Part shown: positions 3,897 through 61,073 of the stretch, one piece after another | Numbering within the stretch: the first letter of the stretch is position 1 | Layout: each line of letters opens with the position of its first letter | NCBI GenBank assembly: GCA_902785425.1 | Contig: CACZYP010000001.1 | Location: 1 to 64,000, forward strand | DNA length: 64,000 nt | Direction of reading: 5' to 3' | From: an uncultured Ruminococcus sp. | GTDB lineage: Bacteria; Bacillota; Clostridia; Oscillospirales; Acutalibacteraceae | The notes under the pieces: generated by a model | Told to the model about the DNA's origin: nothing | The model's input: the letters and a program-made list of their open reading frames with translations, nothing else | The model's database searches: none | Translations under genes and position numbers: made by a program

Positions 3897-5108
3897 TTAG
3901 CCTGCAATGTCGTCGGGGATCATTATATCTTCTTCGATGGAATTCCCGGAGATCTCGGCGCTTTCGTCATAGCCTTTTATTGTCTCCATGCCCTCAAAGA
4001 AACGATCTTCGGGGAACGCTACGTAATCATCGTTAGTGAGTCCGGAAATGATCTCGTAACGGAAAAGTTCATTATCATGCTCGCCGAGCTTTACGCTGCG
4101 CTTTGCAAGCTTGCCGTTGTCGTCTGTCCATACGTAAGGTGCCGTAGTGGCGTCGCAAACGAAGCTGTCATCTATATAAACTTTGTCGTCGTCCTCTTTG
4201 TCTGCTGTGCTGTTACCCCTTGCTTCTTCAACTGTAACATGCTGACCGATGAGAAGACCGTCAATGCTGTCAAGAGAAATGTAAACCGGATACTTTGTAG
4301 TGGTTTCCAGACCGTAAACAGGATTGCTGTTTGAAGGCTTTGCCGTGTCGATGGAAACGACGGAGCCTGTCCATGTTTTGGACTCATCTACTCTTGAGCG
4401 GATAAGTATAGGCTCGTCTACGAAAAATTCTCCGATGTGCTCTTCGCTTACGCTTGCCTTAACACGGTAGTCGCCCGATGAAGTGATCGTTATGTACGCT
4501 TCGGCTGTGGGGTCGTCTACGGAGCGGATAATACCGTCGATAGAAGATTTCACAACGGCGTTCTTGATGGAGTTTTCCGATTTTACGATCGTCTTTTCGA
4601 CTGTGCTCTTGTTGTACTCCGCCTTTTTAAGACCAAGCTTTGCGGCTTCGATCTGATTTTCAAGCGTCAGGCGCTGGTTCCTTGTAGCTGTGCTCTGCTC
4701 CTTTTCAAGAGCGGCTATCTGATCGTTGTACGACTTGATCTCGGCTTCTGCCTGCTCACGGTCAAGCTTGTACTGGTCGAGCTGATACTGAAGATCTTCG
4801 ATATCGTATTCAAAAAGCTTGTCGCCTTTTTTGATCGGGTCGCCCTCTTTTACGTATATAGTTTTGATCTTTTTCTCGCTGTCGGAATCGACCGATATGA
4901 CCTCCTGCGATTCGATCACCGCACTGTAGCGGTTAGAGAGGAAGATGATGTTGTCATTAGTGCCGCCGAGACGGTTGACGTATGCAACGTTTTCGTTGAA
5001 GTCGCTGCCGCCTTTGACAAGCGGTACAACAACGAACCACCCTACCGCAAGAACGGTTGCCGCCAATAACAGGATAAAAATGATTTTCAATACCTTTTTC
5101 ATGTTCAT
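3897..5108 (-). CDS. Second HlyD-family periplasmic adaptor subunit, first gene of the efflux operon.
   Basis: It has an N-terminal TM and a lipoyl-like motif (IYVKEGDPIKKGDKLFEYD) with coiled-coil segments. An RBS GGAGG is present, and the alternative ATG at 5102 has better spacing. Confidence 0.8.
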   Translation of the reverse strand: MNMKKVLKIIFILLLAATVLAVGWFVVVPLVKGGSDFNENVAYVNRLGGTNDNIIFLSNRYSAVIESQEVISVDSDSEKKIKTIYVKEGDPIKKGDKLFEYDIEDLQYQLDQYKLDREQAEAEIKSYNDQIAALEKEQSTATRNQRLTLENQIEAAKLGLKKAEYNKSTVEKTIVKSENSIKNAVVKSSIDGIIRSVDDPTAEAYITITSSGDYRVKASVSEEHIGEFFVDEPILIRSRVDESKTWTGSVVSIDTAKPSNSNPVYGLETTTKYPVYISLDSIDGLLIGQHVTVEEARGNSTADKEDDDKVYIDDSFVCDATTAPYVWTDDNGKLAKRSVKLGEHDNELFRYEIISGLTNDDYVAFPEDRFFEGMETIKGYDESAEISGNSIEEDIMIPDDIAG

Positions 5109-5143: not shown

Positions 5144-5172
5144 ATTATACACTTCCGCATATGCCGTGTCAA
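5144..5172 (-). promoter_or_regulatory. Sigma-A type promoter for the efflux operon: TTGACA-17-TATAAT on the minus strand.
   Basis: The reverse complement reads ttgacacggcatatgcggaagtgtataat about 30 nt upstream of the RBS. Confidence 0.55.
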
Positions 5173-5211: not shown

Positions 5212-6072
5212 GAACCTCGCCTGCGGCGAGGTTCTTAAATTGAAAATGGAAAATTGAAAATGGAAAATTGAAAATGGAAAATTGCAGAGTCGCTGCGCTC
5301 CTGATTTTATATTGGTGTTTTCAAGCCGAATAATTATCACTCGGCGGCGAGTGAAGTATGGATTTATGATGACTAATACAAATTCACCTCGCCCAAGGCG
5401 AGGTTCTTAAATTGAAAATGGAAAATTGAAAATGGAAAATTGCGGAGTCGCTGCGCTCCTGATTTTATATTGGTGTTTTCAAGCCGAATAATTATCACTC
5501 GGCGGCGAGTGAAGTATGGATTTATGATGACTAATACAAATCCAACTCGCCGAAGGAGAGGTTCTTAAATTGAAAATGGAAAATTGAAAATGGAAAATTG
5601 CGGAGTCGCTGCGCTCCTGATTTTATATTGGTGTTTTCAAACCGAATGATTATCACTCGGCGGCGAGTGAAGTGTGGATTTATGATGACTAATACAAATC
5701 CAACTCGCCTGCGGCGAGGTCCTTAAATTGAAAATGGAAAATTGAAAATGGAAAATTGCGGAGTCGCTGCGCTCCTGATTTTATATTGGTGTTTTCAAAC
5801 CGAATAATTATCACTCGGCGGCGAGTGAAGTGTGGATTTATGATGACTAATACAAATCCGACTCGCCGAAGGAGAGGTTCTTAAATTGAAAATGGAAAAT
5901 TGAAAATGGAAAATTGCAGAGTCGCTGCGCTCCTGATTTTATATTGGTGTTTTCAAACCGAATAATTATCACTCGGCAGCGAGTGAAGTATGGATTTATG
6001 ATGACTAATACAAATCCAACTCGGCGAAGCCGAGTTCCATAATTTTCCATTTTCCATTTTCAATTTTCCATT
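5212..6072. repeat. Head-to-tail tandem array of the family A element, about 5.4 copies with a 158 bp period. The first unit carries an extra 14-bp GAAAATGGAAAATT. The array ends with an inverted heptamer block aattttccattttccattttcaattttcc.
   Basis: Unit starts fall at 5229, 5401, 5559, 5717 and 5875. Each unit contains the hairpins CCTCGCC-tgcg-GGCGAGG and TCACTCG-gcg-GCGAGTGA plus the core ttgcggagtcgctgcgctcctgatttta. Confidence 0.95.
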
Positions 6073-6080
6073 AAAAAAAA

Positions 6081-6107
6081 GCCACCCACACAAATGTGTG
6101 GAATGGC
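6081..6107 (-). terminator. Terminator downstream of ackA.
   Basis: The hairpin is gccacccacaca…tgtgtggaatggc, followed by 8 Ts on the minus strand. Confidence 0.55.
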
Positions 6108-6130: not shown

Positions 6131-7339
6131 TTAAAGTGAACCTTCAACGATCGCTTTTGTGTCTCTTGCGATAACGAGCTCTTCGTTTGTCGGGATAACA
6201 AATACCTCGATCGAAGAATCGTCTGCGGAGATCTTGCCGGCGTTGCCGTGGATCATTGCGTTGTTCTTCTCTTTGTCTACCTTTACACCGAGGCAGGAGA
6301 GGTATTCGCAGATCTTTTCACGGAGAGTTACCTGGTTTTCACCGAGGCCTGCCGTGAATACCATGCCGTCGCAGCCGCCGAGAGCTACATAGTAGCCGCC
6401 GATGAACTTTGCGATCTCATAGTAAAGGATCTCATGAGCGAGGTGTGCTCTTTCGTTGCCTTCTTTTTCTGCCTTGGAAACGTCTCTGTCGTCGCTCGAA
6501 ATACCGGAAATACCGAGAAGACCGGACTTCTTGTTGAGCAGGTCGCTCATCTCGGAGGGAGAGAGGTTCTCTTTCTCTGCGATGAATGTTACAACGGAAG
6601 GATCGAGTGTACCTGTTCTTGAACCCATCATGAAGCCGTCAAGCGGAGTAAGACCCATAGATGTGTCGATTACCTTGCCGCCGTCGATAGCTGTAATGGA
6701 AGAACCGTTGCCGATGTGGCATGTGATGAGCTTGAGGTCTTTGATATCCTTGCCCATCATGTTTGCGCATTCGCCGCTTACATAACGGTGCGATGTGCCG
6801 TGGAAGCCGTAGCGGCGGACCTGGTACTTCTCGTAATACTCATAGGGAACAGGGTAGATGTATGCCTTTTCGGGCATTGTGGAATGGAAAGCTGTATCGA
6901 ATACAACGACCTGCGGAAGAGTCTCGCCGAACACTTCTACGCATGCTCTGAGAGCCTGAACGTGACCCTTGTTGTGGAGCGGTGCAAGCGGGATAAGGCT
7001 TTCGATGCCCTTGATGACCTCTTCGTTAACGAGAACGGACTTGCTGAAGATAGCGCCGCCCTGCACGATTCTGTGACCGATAGCCGAAACTTCGGAAAGA
7101 TCGGAGATAACGCCGTACTCGCTGTCTGTAAGTGCGTTCTTTACCTCCATGAAAGCTGCTCTGTGGTCGGGAAGAGTTACTTCCTTCTTGAACTCTTTGC
7201 CGTCAGCGTTTTTGTAGCCTACAAGACCGTCGATGCCGATCCTTTCGCAATTTCCTTTTGCAAGAACCTTTTCGTCCTCCATGTCGATAAGCTGGAACTT
7301 AAGGGACGAGCTTCCTGCGTTGATAACTAATATTTTCAA
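6131..7339 (-). CDS. ackA: Acetate kinase.
   Basis: The translation has (M)KILVINAGSSSLKFQL and conserved ackA motifs throughout. The start is placed at TTG, preceded by AAGGAGAG. Confidence 0.92.
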   Translation of the reverse strand: MKILVINAGSSSLKFQLIDMEDEKVLAKGNCERIGIDGLVGYKNADGKEFKKEVTLPDHRAAFMEVKNALTDSEYGVISDLSEVSAIGHRIVQGGAIFSKSVLVNEEVIKGIESLIPLAPLHNKGHVQALRACVEVFGETLPQVVVFDTAFHSTMPEKAYIYPVPYEYYEKYQVRRYGFHGTSHRYVSGECANMMGKDIKDLKLITCHIGNGSSITAIDGGKVIDTSMGLTPLDGFMMGSRTGTLDPSVVTFIAEKENLSPSEMSDLLNKKSGLLGISGISSDDRDVSKAEKEGNERAHLAHEILYYEIAKFIGGYYVALGGCDGMVFTAGLGENQVTLREKICEYLSCLGVKVDKEKNNAMIHGNAGKISADDSSIEVFVIPTNEELVIARDTKAIVEGSL

Positions 7340-7382
7340 TGGTATTCTCTCCTTGTGCGTTACCGCCATTATTTCATCTATA

Positions 7383-7463: not shown

Positions 7464-9206
7464 TTACAGCGCTTTCGTTCTGATCTCTTCGAGAACGTCC
7501 GAAAGGAACTTCTCAACGCTCATAGCGCCGATGTCGCCCTGCTTTCTCGAACGAACGGAAACAGTATTGGCTTCGATATCCTTGTCGCCGCAAAGGATCA
7601 TGTACGGGATTTTCCGGAGCTGTGCTTCTCTGATCTTGTAGCCGATCTTTTCGCTTCTGTCGTCGATCTCAACACGAAGACCCTTTTCTTCAAGCTTTGC
7701 TTTTACCTCGTTGATGTAGTCAAGGTGTCTGTCTGCGATGGGCAGCAGCTTTACCTGAACGGGAGCAAGCCATGTCGGGAATGCACCTGCGAAATGCTCC
7801 GTGATTACTCCGATAAAACGCTCGATCGAACCGAGAACGACTCTGTGTATCATAGCAGGGCGATGCTTTTCGCCGTCTGCACCGATGTATTCAAGCTCAA
7901 ATCTTTCGGGCAGCTGCATATCGAGCTGTATCGTGCCGCACTGCCATGTTCTGCCAAGTGAATCGGAGAGATGGAAATCAAGCTTAGGTCCGTAGAATGC
8001 GCCGTCGCCTTCATTTATAACGAAAGATTTTCCGAGATCCGTACATGCCTGTTTTAACGTATCCGTAGCAAAATCCCATGTAGCAACGTGACCGAGATGA
8101 TCTTCGGGCATTGTCGATACTTCGATCTGATAGGAAAGTCCGAAAACGGAATAGACCTCGTCAAACAGGTTGATAACATTTTTGATCTCATCTCTCATCT
8201 GCTCCCATGTCATAAATACATGAGCGTCGTCCTGTGTAAAGCAGCGGACACGGAAAAGACCGTGAAGCGCACCCGAAAGCTCATGCCTGTGAACAAGACC
8301 CAATTCGCCGATTCGCAAAGGCAGCTCTTTGTAGGAGTGCGGCTCCGATTTGTAAACGAGCATTCCGCCGGGGCAGTTCATCGGCTTGATGCAGAACTGT
8401 GTGTCGTCTATCATCGTGGAATACATATTCTCGCTATAGTGCGCCCAGTGACCCGATTTTTCCCACAAAGCCTTATCAAGCATTATAGGCGTGGATATTT
8501 CAAGGTAATTGTAGCGCTTATGAACTTCACGCCAGTAATCTATGAGCGTGTTTCTCAACACCATGCCTTTCGGTAGGAAGAACGGAAAACCGGGGCCTTC
8601 GTCCATAAGAACGTACAGACCAAGCTCTTTGCCGAGCTTGCGGTGATCTCTTTTTTTTGCTTCCTCGATCCTTTGCAGGTATTCGTCAAGCTCCGCTTTG
8701 CTCGGATAAGCTACGCCGTATATGCGCTGTAAAGCCGCTTTTGAAGAATCGCCTCTCCAGTAAGCGGAGTTACAGGCTGTAAGCTTTACCGCATTTGCTT
8801 TTACTCTGCCTGTGGAATCAAGGTGCGGTCCTGCGCACAAGTCCGTAAACTCTCCCTGCTTGTAGAAGCTGATAACGGCGTCGTCGGGAAGATCGTTTAT
8901 AAGCTCGATCTTGTACGGCTCGGACTTCATAAGCTCCAAAGCCTCTTCACGGGGCAGCTCAAATCTTTCAAGCTTCAGTTTTTCTTTGCAGATCTTTTTC
9001 ATTTCGGCTTCGATCTTTTCCAGTATCTCCGGCGTGAAGCTGAACGGAGCGTCCATATCGTAATAAAAGCCGTTGTCTATTGAAGGACCTATCGCAAGTT
9101 TTACTTCCGGGTAAAGTCTCTTGACTGCCTGCGCCAGTATATGAGAGCAGGTATGCCAATACGTCCTCCTGTATTCTTCATTTTCAAACGTTGATTTGTT
9201 TTCCAT
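7464..9206 (-). CDS. thrS: Threonine--tRNA ligase paralog 1. It lacks the N-terminal TGS domain and begins at the N2 editing domain (WHTCSH).
   Basis: Class II aaRS motifs and a ThrRS anticodon-binding C-terminus are present. AAGGAGG sits 8 nt before the M18 start. Confidence 0.9.
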   Translation of the reverse strand: MENKSTFENEEYRRTYWHTCSHILAQAVKRLYPEVKLAIGPSIDNGFYYDMDAPFSFTPEILEKIEAEMKKICKEKLKLERFELPREEALELMKSEPYKIELINDLPDDAVISFYKQGEFTDLCAGPHLDSTGRVKANAVKLTACNSAYWRGDSSKAALQRIYGVAYPSKAELDEYLQRIEEAKKRDHRKLGKELGLYVLMDEGPGFPFFLPKGMVLRNTLIDYWREVHKRYNYLEISTPIMLDKALWEKSGHWAHYSENMYSTMIDDTQFCIKPMNCPGGMLVYKSEPHSYKELPLRIGELGLVHRHELSGALHGLFRVRCFTQDDAHVFMTWEQMRDEIKNVINLFDEVYSVFGLSYQIEVSTMPEDHLGHVATWDFATDTLKQACTDLGKSFVINEGDGAFYGPKLDFHLSDSLGRTWQCGTIQLDMQLPERFELEYIGADGEKHRPAMIHRVVLGSIERFIGVITEHFAGAFPTWLAPVQVKLLPIADRHLDYINEVKAKLEEKGLRVEIDDRSEKIGYKIREAQLRKIPYMILCGDKDIEANTVSVRSRKQGDIGAMSVEKFLSDVLEEIRTKAL

Positions 9207-9602: not shown

Positions 9603-11543
9603 TTACAGTGCCTTCGTTCTGATCTCTTCGAGAACGTCTTCAAGGAACTTCTCAACGCTCATAGCGCCGATGTCGCCCTGTTTTCTCGAACGAACGGAAA
9701 CAGTATTGGCTTCGATATCCTTGTCGCCGCAAAGCAGCATGTAAGGAACCTTTTCAAGCTGTGCTTCTCTGATCTTGTAGCCGATCTTTTCGCTTCTGTC
9801 GTCGATCTCGACACGAAGACCCTTTTCTTCGAGCTTTGCTTTTACCTCGTAGATGTAGTCAAGGTGTCTGTCTGCGATGGGCAGGAGCTTTACCTGAACG
9901 GGAGCGAGCCACATCGGGAATGCGCCTGCGTACTTCTCGATAAGAAGCGCAAGTGTTCTCTCGTAGCAGCCGATAGATGTTCTGTGAATGATGTAGGGGT
10001 TCTTTTTTGTACCGTCTTTGTCAACGTATTCCATGCCGAACTTCTCTGCGAGCATCTGGTCGATCTGTATGGTGATGAGCGTATCCTCTTTGCCGTGAAC
10101 GTTCTTGATCTGAATGTCGAGCTTCGGACCGTAGAATGCAGCTTCGCCGATACCGATCTTGTATGTTACACCGAGATCGTCAAGGATAGTCTTCATGATG
10201 CCCTGAGCTTCGTCCCACTGCTCTTCGGTGCCGATGTACTTTTCACGGTCGGTCGGATCCCACTGCGAGAAGCGGTAGGAAACATCGTCCTGAAGACCGA
10301 GCGTTGTGAGCATGAATGTGGTAAGTTCGAGGCACTTCTTGAACTCGTCTGCAAGCTGATCGGGACGGCACATAAGGTGTCCCTCGGAGATGGTGAACTG
10401 ACGAACTCTGATAAGACCGTGCATCTCGCCGCTTGCTTCGTTTCTGAACAGGGTAGAGGTCTCGTTGTAGCGCAGCGGAAGATCTCTGTAAGAGCGCTGC
10501 TTGTTGAGATATGCCTGATACTGGAACGGACATGTCATCGGGCGGAGAGCGTAGACCTCTTTGTCCTTTTCCTCGTCGCCGAGAACGAACATGCCGTCTT
10601 TATAGTGATCCCAGTGACCCGAGATCTTGTAAAGGTCGGACTTTGCCATGAACGGAGTTTTGGTGAGAAGCCAGCCTCTCTTCTGCTCCTCGTCCTCAAC
10701 GAAACGCTGTAAAAGCTGGATAACTCTTGCACCCTTAGGAAGCATGATCGGCAAGCCCTGACCGATATAATCTACGGTCGTGAAAAGCTCCAGCTCACGG
10801 CCGAGCTTGTTGTGATCTCTCTTCTTTGCCTCTTCGAGCATAGTGAGATGCTCTTCAAGCATAGACGCTTTCGGGAAAGCGGTTCCGTAAACTCTGCAAA
10901 GCTGAGCGTTGTTTGCGTCGCCTCTCCAGTAAGCGCCTGTACATGCGGTGAGCTTGAATGCTTTGAGCGGAGAAACGTTCATAAGGTGAGGGCCTGCGCA
11001 AAGATCGGTAAAGTCGCCCTGCTTGTAGAACGAGATTTTCTCGCCCTTATCGGAATGCTCCTTTGCAAGCTCTACCTTGTAAGGTTCGCCCATCTCTTCA
11101 AGAAGCTTTACAGCCTCATCGGGAGCAAGCTCAAAACGCTCAACTTCGATGCCGCTCTTTACGATAGCCTTCATCTCTTTGGTGATAGCTTCAAGGTCTT
11201 CGGGCGAGAATGCCTTTTCTACGTCGAAATCATAGTAAAAGCCGCCGTCGATAGCAGGACCGATAGCAAGCTTTGCGTTCGGGTAAAGATGCTTTACAGC
11301 CTGTGCAAGAACGTGCGAAGCGGTATGCCAGAATACCTTCTTGCCGTCCTCATCGTCAAAGGTTACGAGTTCAAGCTTGCAGTCCTTTGTAAGCGGAGTG
11401 CGGAGATCGCATACAACGTTGTCGATGCGTGCAGCGCAGCAGGACTTGTAAAGACCCATGCTTATAGATTTTGCGATTTCAGCAGCGGTAATGTTTTCTT
11501 CATACTGATTAACAACTCCGCCTTTAAGTTCAACATTGATCAT
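9603..11543 (-). CDS. thrS: Threonine--tRNA ligase paralog 2, full length with TGS, N2 editing, catalytic and anticodon-binding domains.
   Basis: The N-terminus is MINVELKGG…, with HTASHVLAQAV and class II motifs. It has an RBS GAGGTG. Confidence 0.93.
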   Translation of the reverse strand: MINVELKGGVVNQYEENITAAEIAKSISMGLYKSCCAARIDNVVCDLRTPLTKDCKLELVTFDDEDGKKVFWHTASHVLAQAVKHLYPNAKLAIGPAIDGGFYYDFDVEKAFSPEDLEAITKEMKAIVKSGIEVERFELAPDEAVKLLEEMGEPYKVELAKEHSDKGEKISFYKQGDFTDLCAGPHLMNVSPLKAFKLTACTGAYWRGDANNAQLCRVYGTAFPKASMLEEHLTMLEEAKKRDHNKLGRELELFTTVDYIGQGLPIMLPKGARVIQLLQRFVEDEEQKRGWLLTKTPFMAKSDLYKISGHWDHYKDGMFVLGDEEKDKEVYALRPMTCPFQYQAYLNKQRSYRDLPLRYNETSTLFRNEASGEMHGLIRVRQFTISEGHLMCRPDQLADEFKKCLELTTFMLTTLGLQDDVSYRFSQWDPTDREKYIGTEEQWDEAQGIMKTILDDLGVTYKIGIGEAAFYGPKLDIQIKNVHGKEDTLITIQIDQMLAEKFGMEYVDKDGTKKNPYIIHRTSIGCYERTLALLIEKYAGAFPMWLAPVQVKLLPIADRHLDYIYEVKAKLEEKGLRVEIDDRSEKIGYKIREAQLEKVPYMLLCGDKDIEANTVSVRSRKQGDIGAMSVEKFLEDVLEEIRTKAL

Positions 11544-17437: not shown

Positions 17438-17483
17438 AAGCGGCAAAGCCGCTTCTGAAATTGTCCATTGTCAATTGTCAATT
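17438..17483. repeat. Family A fragment (hairpin gcggcaaagccgc followed by gaaattgtccattgtcaattgtcaatt). It supplies the last codons and the TGA stop of coaBC.
   Basis: It matches the heptamer end of the family A elements. Confidence 0.6.
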
Positions 17484-21174: not shown

Positions 21175-21430
21175 GAAAAATCGCATAGTCAAAAGTTTTT
21201 TGCGCAGCTTTTTTTCAAAAAAGCTGCCGGGGTGTGGGGCGAGCAGCCCCACAAAGAAACTACATGATATAGAGTAGTTTGGAGCGAAGCAATAATAAAA
21301 GCGTGCGAAGCACCAAAAATGAAAGAGCCCTTACCGAAAAAACAGGCACGAGGCGAAGCCAATGTGCCGGATGGAAATGCTTAGTGAATGGTTGCTTTTT
21401 GTGCGGTATTGTTTTACGAAAGGAGAGATT
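21175..21430. repeat. Family B hairpin-rich repeat, copy B1, inverted relative to B2.
   Basis: The reverse complement matches 24620-24840, including ccggcacattggcttcgcctcgtgcctgtttt, ggtgcttcgcacgc and ccccggcagcttttttgaaaaaaagctgcgcaaaaaac. Confidence 0.8.
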
Positions 21431-22425: not shown

Positions 22426-22445
22426 AATATTTCTCCTTTCTTAAT

Positions 22446-22497
22446 CCAATTGAAAATTGACAATTTCGGAAGCGCTTCGTGCTTAATTTATATTAGT
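22446..22497. repeat. Family A fragment (left end plus core hairpin ttcggaagcgcttcgtgctt).
   Basis: It matches the family A core. Confidence 0.7.
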
Positions 22498-24344: not shown

Positions 24345-24483
24345 TGCCAGATTTGACAGACCCCACCAATACTAATTGAAAATTGAAAATGGAAAATTGA
24401 AAATTTTTCGATCTTCGGTTTCAATCAGAAATATTCGATTTTCAATAAAATAAGGGTCTGCCAAATTTGACAGACCCCACCAA
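24345..24483. repeat. Minimal 87-bp family A element (24371-24457) flanked by 26-bp direct repeats ctgcca(g/a)atttgacagaccccaccaa.
   Basis: The element has heptamer inverted ends (attgaaaattgaaaatggaaaattgaaa … tttcaatcagaaatattcgattttcaat). The direct repeats lie at 24345-24370 and 24458-24483. Confidence 0.8.
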
Positions 24484-24597: not shown

Positions 24598-24900
24598 TTC
24601 GGATGATTTCCGGCATTGTTTTTTATAGTCCGGCACATTGGCTTCGCCTCGTGCCTGTTTTATCCGTAACGCCGGTTATGTTTTTGTGCTTCGCACGCTG
24701 TGTCTCCGACGGGCAGGGGTTCCGTCTCGGCTGCCGCCTCGGTCGGTGCTTCTGCTGCGCAGAGGTCTCCACCGGAGACCCGCACCCCTGCACCCCGGCA
24801 GCTTTTTTGAAAAAAAGCTGCGCAAAAAACTTCCTGCTGCGCTTTTCTTATGAACAAACCAACGCCCTGCGAATCTCTTCACAGGGCGTGTTTTCAACAT
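24598..24900. repeat. Family B repeat, copy B2.
   Basis: See B1. It contains the hairpin ggtctccaccggagacc and the palindrome gcttttttgaaaaaaagc. Confidence 0.8.
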
Positions 24901-31047: not shown

Positions 31048-31531
31048 AACTACTGCCCCTCTCGGATAAATAAACTTACACTTCTATTATATCAATTTTT
31101 TGCAAAATTTCAAGTAAAAAGTAAAAGTTTTTATACTGAATTTATATAAAATCGTAATTTAGTGAAAATTCACCAAACGAAACAAACAATTGCACAAGAA
31201 TAAATGCAAGAAATTGGCAAAGGTGAACAACACCTGAAAATTTTGCAAGTGCGGGTAAGTTTAAGGAAGCACTGATTAAATCGAGTGCCCATATTGTGCC
31301 GTCAGATTTGCGGACAGTGTCCGCAGACAGATATGCATTATACACTTTGATTTATGATAGCTTGCTCCGTACGCAAAAAAGCTTTCAATTATGATTCTTT
31401 AAGTGCGTTCTGCAAGCGGGTGCATACCCGCCTGACGTATTTCAAGGGAGTTGAGTGTAATATGACAAAAATATGCAAGCAAGATAGGTGCTCAGCCCGT
31501 AGGGCGTGATTTATTCAGTGGTTCCTTAAAT

Positions 31532-32371
31532 CTATCTGTATAGATAATCCTCGAACGGAGCGATAAGGTTTTCTATCCCGTCGATTATCTCTTTGCCGTC
31601 TGCGCCGCATACTTCAAACATCGTTTCCGAAAGGATCCCGAAGCAAACGAGCGAAAAGCACAACGGCACCTGAAATCCGTCAAGGCTGCCGCTTGAGGGA
31701 ATGCTTGTCTCGTCGAGTATCGTTCCGAAGCGGACAGCATTGCCCACAACGCCGGAGTGCGCCCTGTAGCAGGAAAGTACGTAGAGGATTTTTAAGTTTT
31801 CAAGAGTCATCTCGTTCTGGATAGCGCCGAAATTTCTTGTCGGCAGGATATCGCCGATCCACCAGTAGTCGTGAAGATAGTTGCTTTGTCTGTTGTATGA
31901 CAGAAAATCGGAGTATTTCTTTTTGAGCTTGTTGTGCTCCTTGCGTGCGGCTGATTTATTGCGCTGCGCTTCTTCACGTTCCTCCTCGTCCTGCGAGTAT
32001 TCGAGGATATAGCTGTAGTATTTTATTCTGTCACGGGATACTTTTACGTAGAAATCATCGGTGTAGCGCTGGAGAAGATCTTCGTTGTCACGGTGAGCAT
32101 ATAAAAAGCGCATTACGACCATAGATTCATACAAAATTCGTGAAAGGGCCATTGCCCCCTCGGGGTAGCCGTTGTAAAGCAGGATCAGTATTTCTTTAGT
32201 TGTGATGATAGCCTTGGAGTATGCCTCGCTCATTATGCGTGCGAAGGCGTCATGTGATTTTGATTGTTCGTTTTCTTTCCAGAGCTGTTCGCAGTCTTTG
32301 ACGAGCGATACAGCACCGTCATAATTCCATACAGCAGCATTTTTTTTCAGCTGCTCAGGTGTAAAGTCCAT
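31532..32371 (-). CDS. Hypothetical protein of 279 aa, monocistronic in an AT-rich island.
   Basis: It has no recognizable motifs and is flanked by 415-480 bp AT-rich spacers. Confidence 0.5.
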   Translation of the reverse strand: MDFTPEQLKKNAAVWNYDGAVSLVKDCEQLWKENEQSKSHDAFARIMSEAYSKAIITTKEILILLYNGYPEGAMALSRILYESMVVMRFLYAHRDNEDLLQRYTDDFYVKVSRDRIKYYSYILEYSQDEEEREEAQRNKSAARKEHNKLKKKYSDFLSYNRQSNYLHDYWWIGDILPTRNFGAIQNEMTLENLKILYVLSCYRAHSGVVGNAVRFGTILDETSIPSSGSLDGFQVPLCFSLVCFGILSETMFEVCGADGKEIIDGIENLIAPFEDYLYR

Positions 32372-32768
32372 GTCATCACCCCGATATCGAATTTCTGTTA
32401 AGTCTTGTTATAATTTGCAAAAAAAGAATTATATTTGTCTTTATATAATAATTATAGCAGTGTTGGATTTGAAATAATACGTTTTATTAGAAAAAAGGTA
32501 TACAAATTTTTTGGAATTTTCCATAAGTTTTTTTACGTCTGAGTAAACGCTGATTTGCTCCAAAAAGTACCGCCTTGAGGCTTTACACGACAGCGTCGTT
32601 TGTCGCTATTTACGCTTTCGCTTTATAGATACACGACATATTGAGATGCGACAAACGCAGTGCGACAGATTGCTTTGGCAGTTCGATGTACAATAACAAT
32701 TGCTTTAGTGCATATTTTAAGGAGTCACTGAATAAATCACGTCCTGCGGACTGAGTGCCTTCTTGATT

Positions 32769-32798
32769 CTCCATTATCCATTGTCAATTGTCCATTAA
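32769..32798. repeat. Family A fragment (inverted heptamers ccattatccattgtcaattgtccatt) directly upstream of the spoIIE RBS.
   Basis: It is visible. Confidence 0.6.
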
Positions 32799-35138: not shown

Positions 35139-35206
35139 AAATGGAAAATTGAAAATGGAAAATGGAAAATTGCGGTCAGGCTCGCTGCGCTCGCCTTTTT
35201 TAATAA
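35139..35206. repeat. Family A fragment (left heptamers plus core gcggtcaggctcgctgcgctcgcc followed by a T-run).
   Basis: It is visible and may serve as the spoIIE terminator. Confidence 0.7.
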
Positions 35207-35261
35207 TAGAGGAGTCAATTTTTTAGGACGGTAAAAAAACGCATATTCGAAAGTGTTTGCC

Positions 35262-35342
35262 AAGCCCTTTTAGGGGTGAATTTCCAAAACAGTCAGGCGG
35301 ACTGTTTTGGAAAGAAGGGCATTCTGGCAGGAATGCCCCTAA
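35262..35342. repeat. Family B repeat, copy B3.
   Basis: Hairpins ccaaaacagtcaggcggactgttttgg and gggcattctggcaggaatgccc match B4 in inverted orientation. Confidence 0.75.
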
Positions 35343-41725: not shown

Positions 41726-41890
41726 TAGGGGCATTTTCTGCCAAAATGCCCCTCTTTCCAAAACAGTCCGCCGGACTGTTTTGGAAATTCACCCCTAAAA
41801 GGGCGTGAACATGCCTCCGGCGGGCAAGGGCGCTGCCCTTGCAACCAGCCCGCTTTTTGAAAAAAGCGGGGCAAAAACTTTACGCTATAA
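41726..41890. repeat. Family B repeat, copy B4, between dnaK and dnaJ.
   Basis: It contains gggcattttctgccaaaatgcccc, ccaaaacagtccgccggactgttttgg and gctttttgaaaaaagcggggcaaaaac. Confidence 0.75.
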
Positions 41891-45821: not shown

Positions 45822-45972
45822 AAATGGAAAATTGAAAATGGAAAATGGAAAATTGCAGAGTCGCTCCGCTTCTGATTTTATAAGTGTGGAGTGTGGATCT
45901 TAGATAGCTAATACAAATCAACTCGGCTAAGCCTGTTCCTCAATTTTCTATTTTCCACTTTCAATTTTATTT
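45822..45972. repeat. Complete family A element with GAAAAT-type heptamers at both ends.
   Basis: It reads aaatggaaaattgaaaatggaaaatggaaaattgcagagtcgctccgcttctg … caattttctattttccactttcaatttt. Confidence 0.85.
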
Positions 45973-55643: not shown

Positions 55644-56437
55644 AGAACGGTTCAGTAAAGCTTGACAATACGGAAATGTACTACGTTTCTTTCGGCAGCG
55701 GCGAAAAAACGCTTATTGTTCTGCCCGGCCTTTCAGACGGGCTTATGACAGTCAAGGGCAAAGCACTGCTTCTTTCAAAGCCGTATAAGCCGTTTTTTAA
55801 AGAGTACACCGTATATATGTTCAGCAGAAAAAACGATATGCCGAGCGGCTATTCCATAAAGGATATGGCGGCGGATCAGGCGAAAGCCCTGAAAACTCTC
55901 GGAATTGAAAAGACTTCTGTGCTCGGAGTATCGCAGGGCGGTATGATATCACAGTGCTTTGCGATAGACTATCCCGAGCTTGTCGAAAAGCTTGTTGTGG
56001 CAGTGTCTGCTCCGTATGCAAACAAGACTGTTACGGAAAACGTCAGCAGGTGGATAGAGTACGCCAAAGACGGAGATCATAAGAACCTTATGATAGACAC
56101 CGCCGAAAAGGGCTACTCGCCGCAGTATCTTAAAAAATACCGCAAGTTCTATCCGTTTATAGGCTTGTTTGCAAAACCGTCCGATTACGGCAGATTTTTG
56201 AAAAACGCCGAGGCTATACTTCGCTTCGATGCTTTATCCGAACTTGAAAACATCAAATGTCCGACACTGATAATAGGCGGAGATATTGATGCAACAGTCA
56301 CCGCCGAGGCTTCATATGAGATGCATGAGCATATTAAGGGCAGTGAGCTGTATATGTATGAAGGACTCGGTCATGCGGCTTACGAAGAGGCGAAGGACTT
56401 TTATGATAGAGTGTTCGGCTTTATAATTGACAATTGA
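55640..56437 (+). CDS. Alpha/beta hydrolase fold protein.
   Basis: It has the nucleophile elbow GVSQGG. The last codons (…IIDN) and the TGA stop are supplied by a family A heptamer block. Confidence 0.75.
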   Translation: MKNGSVKLDNTEMYYVSFGSGEKTLIVLPGLSDGLMTVKGKALLLSKPYKPFFKEYTVYMFSRKNDMPSGYSIKDMAADQAKALKTLGIEKTSVLGVSQGGMISQCFAIDYPELVEKLVVAVSAPYANKTVTENVSRWIEYAKDGDHKNLMIDTAEKGYSPQYLKKYRKFYPFIGLFAKPSDYGRFLKNAEAILRFDALSELENIKCPTLIIGGDIDATVTAEASYEMHEHIKGSELYMYEGLGHAAYEEAKDFYDRVFGFIIDN

Positions 56438-60887: not shown

Positions 60888-61073
60888 AATGGAAAATTGA
60901 CAATTGACAATGGACAATTGCGGAAGCGGCTGCGCCGCTTGATTTTATATTAGTTTATTCAGAACTTAATAGTTATCTCATGGCTGTGAATTTGGGATAG
61001 CTAATATAATCCAACTCGGCGAAGCCGAGTTCCATAATTGTCAATTATCAATTGTCAATTGTCAATTGATGAA
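60888..61073. repeat. Long family A element. Its end runs into the tmcAL start region.
   Basis: It reads ggaaaattgacaattgacaatggacaattgcggaagcggctgcgccgcttg … aactcggcgaagccgagttccataattgtcaattatcaattgtcaattgtcaattg. Confidence 0.85.

Follow-up and report, generated by a model that had tools for sequence, protein, structure and literature searches.

The window, meaning the whole 64-kb stretch of DNA that was analysed, contains an 860-bp tandem array (5212-6072) located between the acetate kinase gene ackA and an efflux operon. The upstream neighbour ackA (6131-7369, minus strand; PF00871) is followed by an intrinsic terminator (6077-6102, minus strand; match at 6102-6085), the T-run of which borders immediately on the array at its right end. 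On the other side, 40 bp beyond the left end, lies the promoter-like sequence TTGACA-17-TATAAT of the efflux operon (5144-5172, minus strand), which matches at 12 of 12 positions. The first gene of this operon, assigned by a protein-family match, encodes a YknX/MacA-like adaptor (3897-5108, minus strand) and is followed by the gene of an ABC ATPase (ABC_tran) and then by MacB_PCD/FtsX permease genes. A first-pass annotation of this DNA had placed the array between the promoter of the efflux operon and the ackA terminator, and both signals were recovered here on either side of it. Since a terminator precedes the array and the next promoter comes only after it, it is predicted that strong transcription of the array is unlikely. 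Beyond ackA, two adjacent genes for threonyl-tRNA synthetase paralogues (597 aa and 646 aa) have 300 nt in common at their 3′ ends (7464-7763 and 9603-9902; 93% identity), which suggests that gene conversion has taken place between them.

Architecture of the array

Tandem Repeats Finder delimited a repeat at 5251-6034 with a period of 158, 5.0 copies, 95% matches and 0 indels (score 1428), and a repeat search of the window likewise yielded five in-register copies at a spacing of 158 bp. The whole array is made of five head-to-tail units of about 95% identity, the first of which comprises 172 bp and the others 158 bp. With boundaries set by splitting at the junction motif, the units, all on the plus strand, start at 5232 (unit 1, 5232-5403), 5404 (unit 2, 5404-5561), 5562 (unit 3, 5562-5719), 5720 (unit 4, 5720-5877) and 5878 (unit 5, 5878-6073), with unit 5 being the sole complete element according to sequence, repeat search and fold. 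The head-to-tail arrangement and the degree of identity are as the first-pass annotation had described them, apart from a register shifted by 3 nt. The 14-bp extra that it had ascribed to the first unit was found again as an additional GAAAATGGAAAATT, a 14-mer occurring 3.4 times in unit 1 vs. 2.4 times in the other units and located in the left heptamer block of unit 1 (5237-5284).

Each unit carries such a left block of tandem GAAAATG/GAAAATT heptamers on the plus strand, which in unit 2 (5409-5442) amounts to 4.6 heptamers and in units 3 to 5 is found at 5567-5600, 5725-5758 and 5883-5916. Next to it lies a hairpin, termed L hairpin here, composed of GGAGTCGCTGCGCTCC and then TGATTTTATA (5444-5469 in unit 2), which is terminator-like on the plus strand and present in every unit. 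Hairpin A (TCACTCG-GCGG-CGAGTGA), apparent from the sequence and from a scan for terminator-like hairpins, occurs once per unit at 5337-5354, 5495-5512, 5653-5670, 5811-5828 and 5969-5986. In unit 5, the left heptamers are followed by the L hairpin, hairpin A, a further hairpin called hairpin B (6018-6036) and finally the only right-hand block of inverted heptamers (6040-6073, minus strand), which was identified by an inverted-repeat search. This block is 84-87% complementary to every left heptamer block of the array, in agreement with the earlier description of the array end as an inverted heptamer block, while its complementarity to the left blocks of other family members (35140-35171 and 45823-45854) is 100%.

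A different arrangement was observed at the internal junctions, where hairpin B is followed by TTC, TTAAATTG and the left heptamers of the next unit, with no right-hand heptamers in between. An extra copy of hairpin B (ACCTCGCC-TGC-GGCGAGGT; 5214-5234, plus strand) lies outside the first left heptamer block and represents the tail of a truncated unit, so that the array can be written as (hairpin B + left end + body) x5, hairpin B, right heptamers. The array had been taken to be bounded like a single element, which is not exactly the case on account of this leading hairpin. Because of the extra leading hairpin and of the internal units devoid of right-hand heptamers, we read the array as four truncated copies plus one complete copy, and not as a single element that was expanded internally.

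The six copies of hairpin B are not equivalent. Four of them are intact, namely the leading one, those of junctions 1 and 3 (the latter with one A.G mismatch) and the terminal one, whereas at junctions 2 and 4 the hairpin is broken (ACTCGCC-GAAG-GAGAGG). The leading copy shares its stem and loop (CTCGCC-TGC-GGCGAG) with the copy of junction 3, from which it differs by the outermost stem base alone (ACCTCGCC vs. AACTCGCC), and it is distinct from the terminal hairpin (AACTCGGC...GCCGAGTT). The hairpins of junctions 2, 3 and 4 are mosaics of the leading and the terminal type, by which pairing has been broken in two of them. Of the two perfect hairpins per unit that had been noticed before, hairpin A is thus present throughout and the junction hairpin is not, while the L hairpin, a third one found in every unit, had been missed.

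When unit 5 is folded as RNA, its terminal heptamers are predicted to pair into a stem of about 27 bp, with a minimum free energy of -66.4 kcal/mol (z = -7.1). The predicted fold of the whole array is also far better than that of shuffled sequences (z = -16), and 14 terminator-like hairpins were counted in 1.5 kb vs. 1.7 expected.

The heptamer family in the window and its gene-bearing relatives

The array belongs to a repeat family that is present at about 15 loci of the window, all of them intergenic, with 24 heptamer blocks in 64 kb (0.375 per kb); the view that a family also found as single copies was amplified in tandem at 5212-6072 is borne out. The building block of this family is an end module of four to five tandem heptamers (GAAAATK, GACAATK, GGATAGT or GGAAAGT, depending on the copy), GCGG or ATGG, a GC hairpin whose sequence varies between copies by compensating changes, and GATTT(T/G)ATA. 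Two end modules facing each other make up a complete element, e.g., the one at 60888-61070. Single elements are predicted to fold as RNA with a terminal stem (z = -7 to -8.5), which is long in the case of 60888-61070 (z = -8.5). Solo modules occur directly after stop codons, oriented with the gene.

For two genes the repeat reaches into the coding sequence. Heptamer blocks (17471-17483 and 56420-56437) enclose the stop codons of one gene that ends at 17471 on the minus strand and of another that ends at 56437 on the plus strand, and both codons are supplied by the heptamers (17471-17473 and 56435-56437). The family hairpins with their T-runs that come after these genes look like the terminators of the genes, in which case repeat DNA would provide gene ends. 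In genome annotation, such repeats explain broken contigs as well as stop codons and terminators supplied by repeat DNA.

No transposase was found by Pfam on 10 window ORFs in segments bounded by inverted repeats, nor inside the pairs of inverted heptamer blocks inspected in related loci (L022, L046, L060), where ordinary genes or a PF05635 gene were located instead. The flanks of six complete copies, compared with one another, have no direct repeat in common that would indicate a target-site duplication. The AckA relatives that might have supplied an empty site, those of 62-76% identity from a metagenome scan as well as those of 92-94% identity, are not syntenic. Searches for a PF05635 gene or a remnant of it in the window (jackhmmer on all ORFs of at least 70 aa; tblastn at E <= 10) yielded none. 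The window contains no match to Rfam at gathering score and no rRNA, and among 18 related loci an SRP RNA beside a cassette was the only Rfam match.

In ~34 kb of non-redundant sequence from congeners with a 92-94% identical AckA not a single heptamer block was present, and the background in 939 kb of DNA from more distant AckA relatives was three. As 24 blocks in 64 kb compare with none in congeners and three in distant relatives, the family has multiplied recently in the lineage of the window, an uncultured gut Clostridia.

The nature of the family becomes apparent from relatives that carry a gene. The terminal 38 nt of the array's right end are 100% identical to the terminal repeat of a locus in a Ruminococcus MAG (L060), the ends of which enclose a 126-aa ORF encoding a PF05635 "23S rRNA-intervening sequence protein" (E = 1e-28). 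A compact cassette from Faecousia (L046) is composed of heptamers, GCGGAGGagaatATG, the ORF, TAA and inverted heptamers. In another cassette (L147), the left module of the array units aligns with the 5′ non-coding end up to the start codon, with ATTTT(A)TATTGGTG in common, and the right module aligns with the 3′ end, consisting of a hairpin, CC and ATAATTTTCCATTTTCCATTTTCAATTTTC; the L hairpin of the units falls on the 5′ untranslated end when aligned to gene-bearing cassettes. A full cassette measures about 430-700 bp and contains four to five heptamers, a short leader, a gene of ~115 aa for a four-helix-bundle protein, one or two hairpins and the same heptamers in inverted orientation. Its protein matches TIGR02436 (E = 1e-31) and the structure PDB 2RLD with five chains (E = 4e-44), and it is distantly similar to the Avd protein of diversity-generating retroelements (DGR; NF033474, E = 2.5e-4; PF22296, weak).

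All these alignments argue that the window family, not identified in the first-pass annotation, is a gene-less derivative of a heptamer-bounded S23p/IVS-type cassette (PF05635/TIGR02436, Avd-like). What is left in the window copies is the left end (heptamers, GCGG, hairpin, GATTTTATATTGGTG), a body of ~70 bp that includes hairpin A, then hairpin B and the right heptamers, and a unit would correspond to a cassette minus ~350 bp of gene, since its ends align with those of L147 and no PF05635 remnant is present in the window. The array accordingly shares the inverted heptamer ends and the end homology with such cassettes, but not the PF05635 gene. The same holds for stand-alone TIGR02436/PF05635 four-helix-bundle genes (PDB 2RLD): the window modules align with the non-coding ends of such cassettes from Ruminococcus and Oscillospiraceae MAGs, whereas the window copies have lost the gene. 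A scan of the genome collection with the 19-mer GAMAATKGAMAATTGCGGA returned 62 loci, where about 35 are expected by chance; only hits with extra heptamers were kept. About half of the 62 loci have further heptamers and an inverted partner; the loci with extra heptamers belong to Clostridia, Bacteroidota, Planctomycetota, Victivallis, Acidobacteriota, Gemmatimonadota and a CPR bacterium.

Further repeats were noted in the window and near ackA in related genomes. A 73-nt inverted repeat pair (35261-35333 and 41735-41807; 93% complementary) with internal hairpins represents a repeat family distinct from the heptamer elements and brackets 6.4 kb containing an ABC-2 transporter, a two-component system, a CpXC gene and dnaJ. 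Inverted repeats of ~180 bp (21193-21371 and 24629-24832; 84-96% complementary) bracket a 3.3-kb segment with an AAA-domain gene, an SPFH/Band 7 gene and, inside it, heptamer fragments at 22443-22495 and 24373-24406. A 45-nt inverted pair (31486-31530 and 32716-32760; 84% complementary) flanks a gene for a 279-aa DUF5677 protein (31532-32371, minus strand), and directly after this pair, just upstream of a SpoIIE-like gene, lies a heptamer block (32762-32796). In a distant relative with a 62% identical AckA (L143), a block of five GGATAGT heptamers (2258-2297) starts 27 bp after ackA; it is a second, independent heptamer insertion downstream of this gene. In human-gut relatives (L075-L146), tandem repeats of 231-243 bp, with 1.8-3.7 copies of ~80-89% identity, are located ~600 bp downstream of ackA in the gene that comes after it (e.g., L096, 11783-12685). 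They look like coding domain repeats of variable copy number, unrelated to the heptamer family.

Origin of the array and alternative explanations

We consider it likely that the array arose when a gene-less, MITE-like derivative of a small and widespread selfish cassette was amplified locally in tandem. Judging from the junction sequences alone, the first duplication could have occurred between two copies of hairpin B in direct repeat, either by replication slippage or by unequal homologous recombination, after which unequal exchange and gene conversion would have expanded and shuffled the units. The chimeric junction hairpins are what unequal crossing-over or conversion within a directly repeated hairpin would leave behind, and this suggests host recombination between direct repeats, as opposed to an amplifying activity that the element would possess itself. 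The idea that the element can amplify locally stands in part: tandem duplications recur in other loci (141 bp x2 at 100% identity in L060; 93 bp x2.2 in L019) and one assembly is a unit short, whereas the chimeric junctions point to the host. [quoted passage not shown] With its many GC hairpins and their T-rich tails, the array would amount to a series of terminator-like structures in the interval from ackA to the efflux operon.

How variable the array is can be judged from three other metagenome contigs that carry an identical AckA or YknX protein. In one independent assembly (L004), exactly unit 2 (5404-5561) is missing and the other 9,108 bp match the window with 0 mismatches. Another one (L001) has the same length and differs at seven positions (5384, 5387, 5394, 5399, 5648, 5978 and 5990), all of which are in the array and all of which correspond to variants present in other units; another part of its contig matches the window over 21,845 bp at 100% identity. 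The array is the sole variable site in more than 30 kb between these assemblies. The differences fit a rapid gain, loss and conversion of units, and they also fit short-read mis-phasing, as all assemblies are short-read metagenomic and 158-bp units of 95-97% identity leave copy number and phasing open to mis-assembly. The array is a real feature, with its exact copy number being provisional on short-read assemblies. Given that tandem arrays of this type look unstable, they might offer a simple length marker for strain typing.

An assembly artefact, i.e., a true unit number that differs and is possibly only one or two, with array and variants arising from short-read repeat resolution, is the first alternative to be considered. 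It would explain why otherwise identical metagenome assemblies, three in number, deviate in the array only, by swaps of unit variants or by a whole unit, and why two contigs (L002, k87; L003, Logan) break in or at the array. Nevertheless, we regard it as unlikely, because three assemblies made with different assemblers or k recovered at least four units with the same order of unit-specific variants, and the 14-bp extra of unit 1 and the leading hairpin were reproduced in three out of three. In addition, the unit-specific sites are closer to each other than k = 141, so that paths through the array are resolvable.

Equally improbable in our opinion is that the array is a host-selected module, either a terminator bank shielding the efflux operon from read-through out of ackA or, as in part suggested by the first-pass annotation with its transcribed RNA array and protein-binding platform, a set of repeated binding sites or a structured regulatory RNA. 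The number of terminator-like hairpins and the stability of the array fold described above would be in line with it, as would the position exactly between terminator and promoter and the solo left modules elsewhere that directly follow stop codons in gene orientation. However, the same features are found in every family copy wherever it is located, ackA has a strong terminator of its own, the copy number appears to vary without any other change, the congeners are entirely devoid of the family (~34 kb) and no matching Rfam family exists for the window or the 18 related loci. Because the hairpin and fold traits belong to every copy and a strong terminator already precedes the array, it is probably neutral or selfish DNA that is tolerated in the gap between terminator and promoter. 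A side effect as insulator is possible within such a model.

Very unlikely is a classical MITE moved by a heptamer-binding DDE transposase, with the array resulting from repeated insertion beside itself: the small size, the terminal inverted repeats, the intergenic location and the many copies would agree with it, and insertion beside T-rich terminator tails suggests a target preference, but neither the Pfam-scanned ORFs of inverted-repeat-bounded window segments nor the inspected heptamer pairs hold a transposase, PF05635 is the only gene found between such ends, the heptamers differ between copies in one genome while matching between the ends of one copy, the right-hand heptamers that serial insertion would leave at internal junctions are lacking and no target-site duplication is visible.

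These points also delimit the family from known bacterial repeats. Like bacterial MITEs, the window elements are short, non-coding, intergenic and multicopy, have terminal inverted repeats and show a lineage-specific burst. Unlike them, their heptamer ends drift between copies and their full-length relative has no recognisable transposase; ends common to a transposase-encoding element, as expected for a MITE, were absent from the window ORFs tested and the loci inspected. REP/BIME sequences, in particular BIME-2 arrays, resemble the array as abundant extragenic hairpin repeats that form composite clusters of variable copy number after genes, but successive BIME units are oriented alternately and are associated with RAYT tyrosine transposases (PMC2817692). 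The units of the array are all head-to-tail, 158 bp long and heptamer-bounded.

Three other candidates were rejected. A CRISPR-like array does not apply, with whole 158-bp units repeating at 95% identity and no unique spacers. A sponge for CsrA based on GGA motifs was discarded as many copies use GACAATT. Rolling-circle cDNA concatemers were dismissed on the basis of the junctions, where excision by RNase III should have left inner right-hand heptamers and none are present.

Heptamer-bounded PF05635 cassettes across phyla

IVS elements were first described in the 1990s, and the S23p family has been called selfish since then. The best comparison is offered by the IVS of Coxiella burnetii, a 428-nt sequence with an S23p ORF and a 28-bp terminal stem within which RNase III cuts, and in which two to three tandem GACAGAT heptamers are present depending on the strain (PMC4990558). 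It is one published example of a heptamer-bounded PF05635 cassette. The IVS of Coxiella and Leptospira, the only ones for which transcript excision by RNase III is known, share with the window family the small size, the inverted tandem-heptamer ends, the stem of ~28 bp, the PF05635 partner gene and the status as elements regarded as selfish (PMC4990558). In contrast to these IVS, which are located in helix 45 of the 23S rRNA, the array is intergenic and without ORF, its heptamer is GAAAATK instead of GACAGAT, and the window element occupies ~15 loci in 64 kb, at one of which it forms the tandem array of five units. In the strict sense, an IVS is an insertion in a 23S rRNA helix, and the array, lying between ackA and yknX, is not one.

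Loci chosen by protein homology alone, about 24 in total, were inspected for their ends: three Clostridia proteins, seven plasmid-borne genes (Monoglobus, Treponema, Euhalothece, Bernardetia, Nostoc, Planktothrix and Chlorohelix) and 14 viral-contig loci, the latter obtained from an alignment-based scan, as a single-protein scan of viral contigs gave none. The sample spans Clostridia, cyanobacteria, Bacteroidota, Spirochaetota, Chloroflexota and viral contigs. Inverted heptamer arrays flank the PF05635 gene in all three Clostridia sets, in all seven plasmid taxa and in 11 out of 14 viral-contig loci, with one detected array in each of the remaining three. The heptamer sequence is lineage-specific, yet the same at both ends of each cassette, e.g., GATTAGT x9 in Bernardetia, GTCGGAG/GTCGGAA in Nostoc punctiforme, ACTGGTC x12 in Euhalothece and AATTCGT in an IMG/VR contig. 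Upstream flanks pair preferentially with the downstream flank of the same locus and vice versa, the true partner having ranked first in 13 of 22 loci and among the first three in 19. In the loci inspected, PF05635 was the sole gene found between such heptamer ends. A hairpin as class-wide feature was dropped: the hairpins beside GCGG-ended heptamer blocks have a mean of -5.9 vs. -4.7 kcal/mol for shuffles, which is a weak signal, and hairpins beside heptamers are not found in every lineage.

Tandem heptamers in non-coding DNA are also known from cyanobacteria as STRR. To our knowledge, STRR have been described as a repeat class and not as the ends of a cassette. The heptamers that flank PF05635 genes on plasmids of Nostoc, Planktothrix and Euhalothece look like classical STRR; the window, in contrast, originates from Clostridia. 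In the present sample, the occurrence of inverted heptamer ends with PF05635 across phyla ties together rRNA IVS, cyanobacterial STRR-like repeats and Clostridia repeats. Our literature search found no description of the heptamer family of the window, with the paper on the Coxiella IVS (PMC4990558) as the only relevant one, and no paper stating a general rule that links PF05635 genes to heptamers.

As the cassette ends, even when the gene is gone, can be maintained and can multiply to a very high density, a mobilising function would be able to act in trans or be supplied by the host. It is tempting, though on balance rather doubtful, to go one step further and to regard heptamer-bounded cassettes, their gene-less derivatives and the arrays as one pan-bacterial mobile class. 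Such a class would spread without a recognisable transposase via the heptamer stem, as RNA or fold-back DNA, possibly aided by the pentameric Avd-like protein and, in trans, by a reverse transcriptase or an enzyme of the host. The Avd protein of DGR is a distant relative of the cassette protein (PMC10053308), but unlike in DGR, no reverse transcriptase, template repeat or variable repeat was found near the cassettes inspected. If this proposal were true, the burst in this Clostridia lineage would be a natural system for finding the mobilising activity.

The PF05635 family is very large, with at least 7,997 relatives at E <= 1e-5 among 8,000 scored candidates, and as a wider pattern a very large class of cassettes with matched heptamer ends deserves follow-up. 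Many close PF05635 homologues were seen solely on contigs of 500-1,000 bp, as expected if heptamer ends break short-read assemblies. Several cassettes lie between restriction-modification or BREX genes, namely between hsdS and hsdR, beside pglX and between helicase and N6-methylase genes (L158, Monoglobus; L163, Planktothrix; L164, Chlorohelix). In an Oscillospiraceae locus (L150, 875-1600), the SRP RNA gene (Rfam RF01854, 183 bits) is separated from dnaX by an inserted compact PF05635 cassette.
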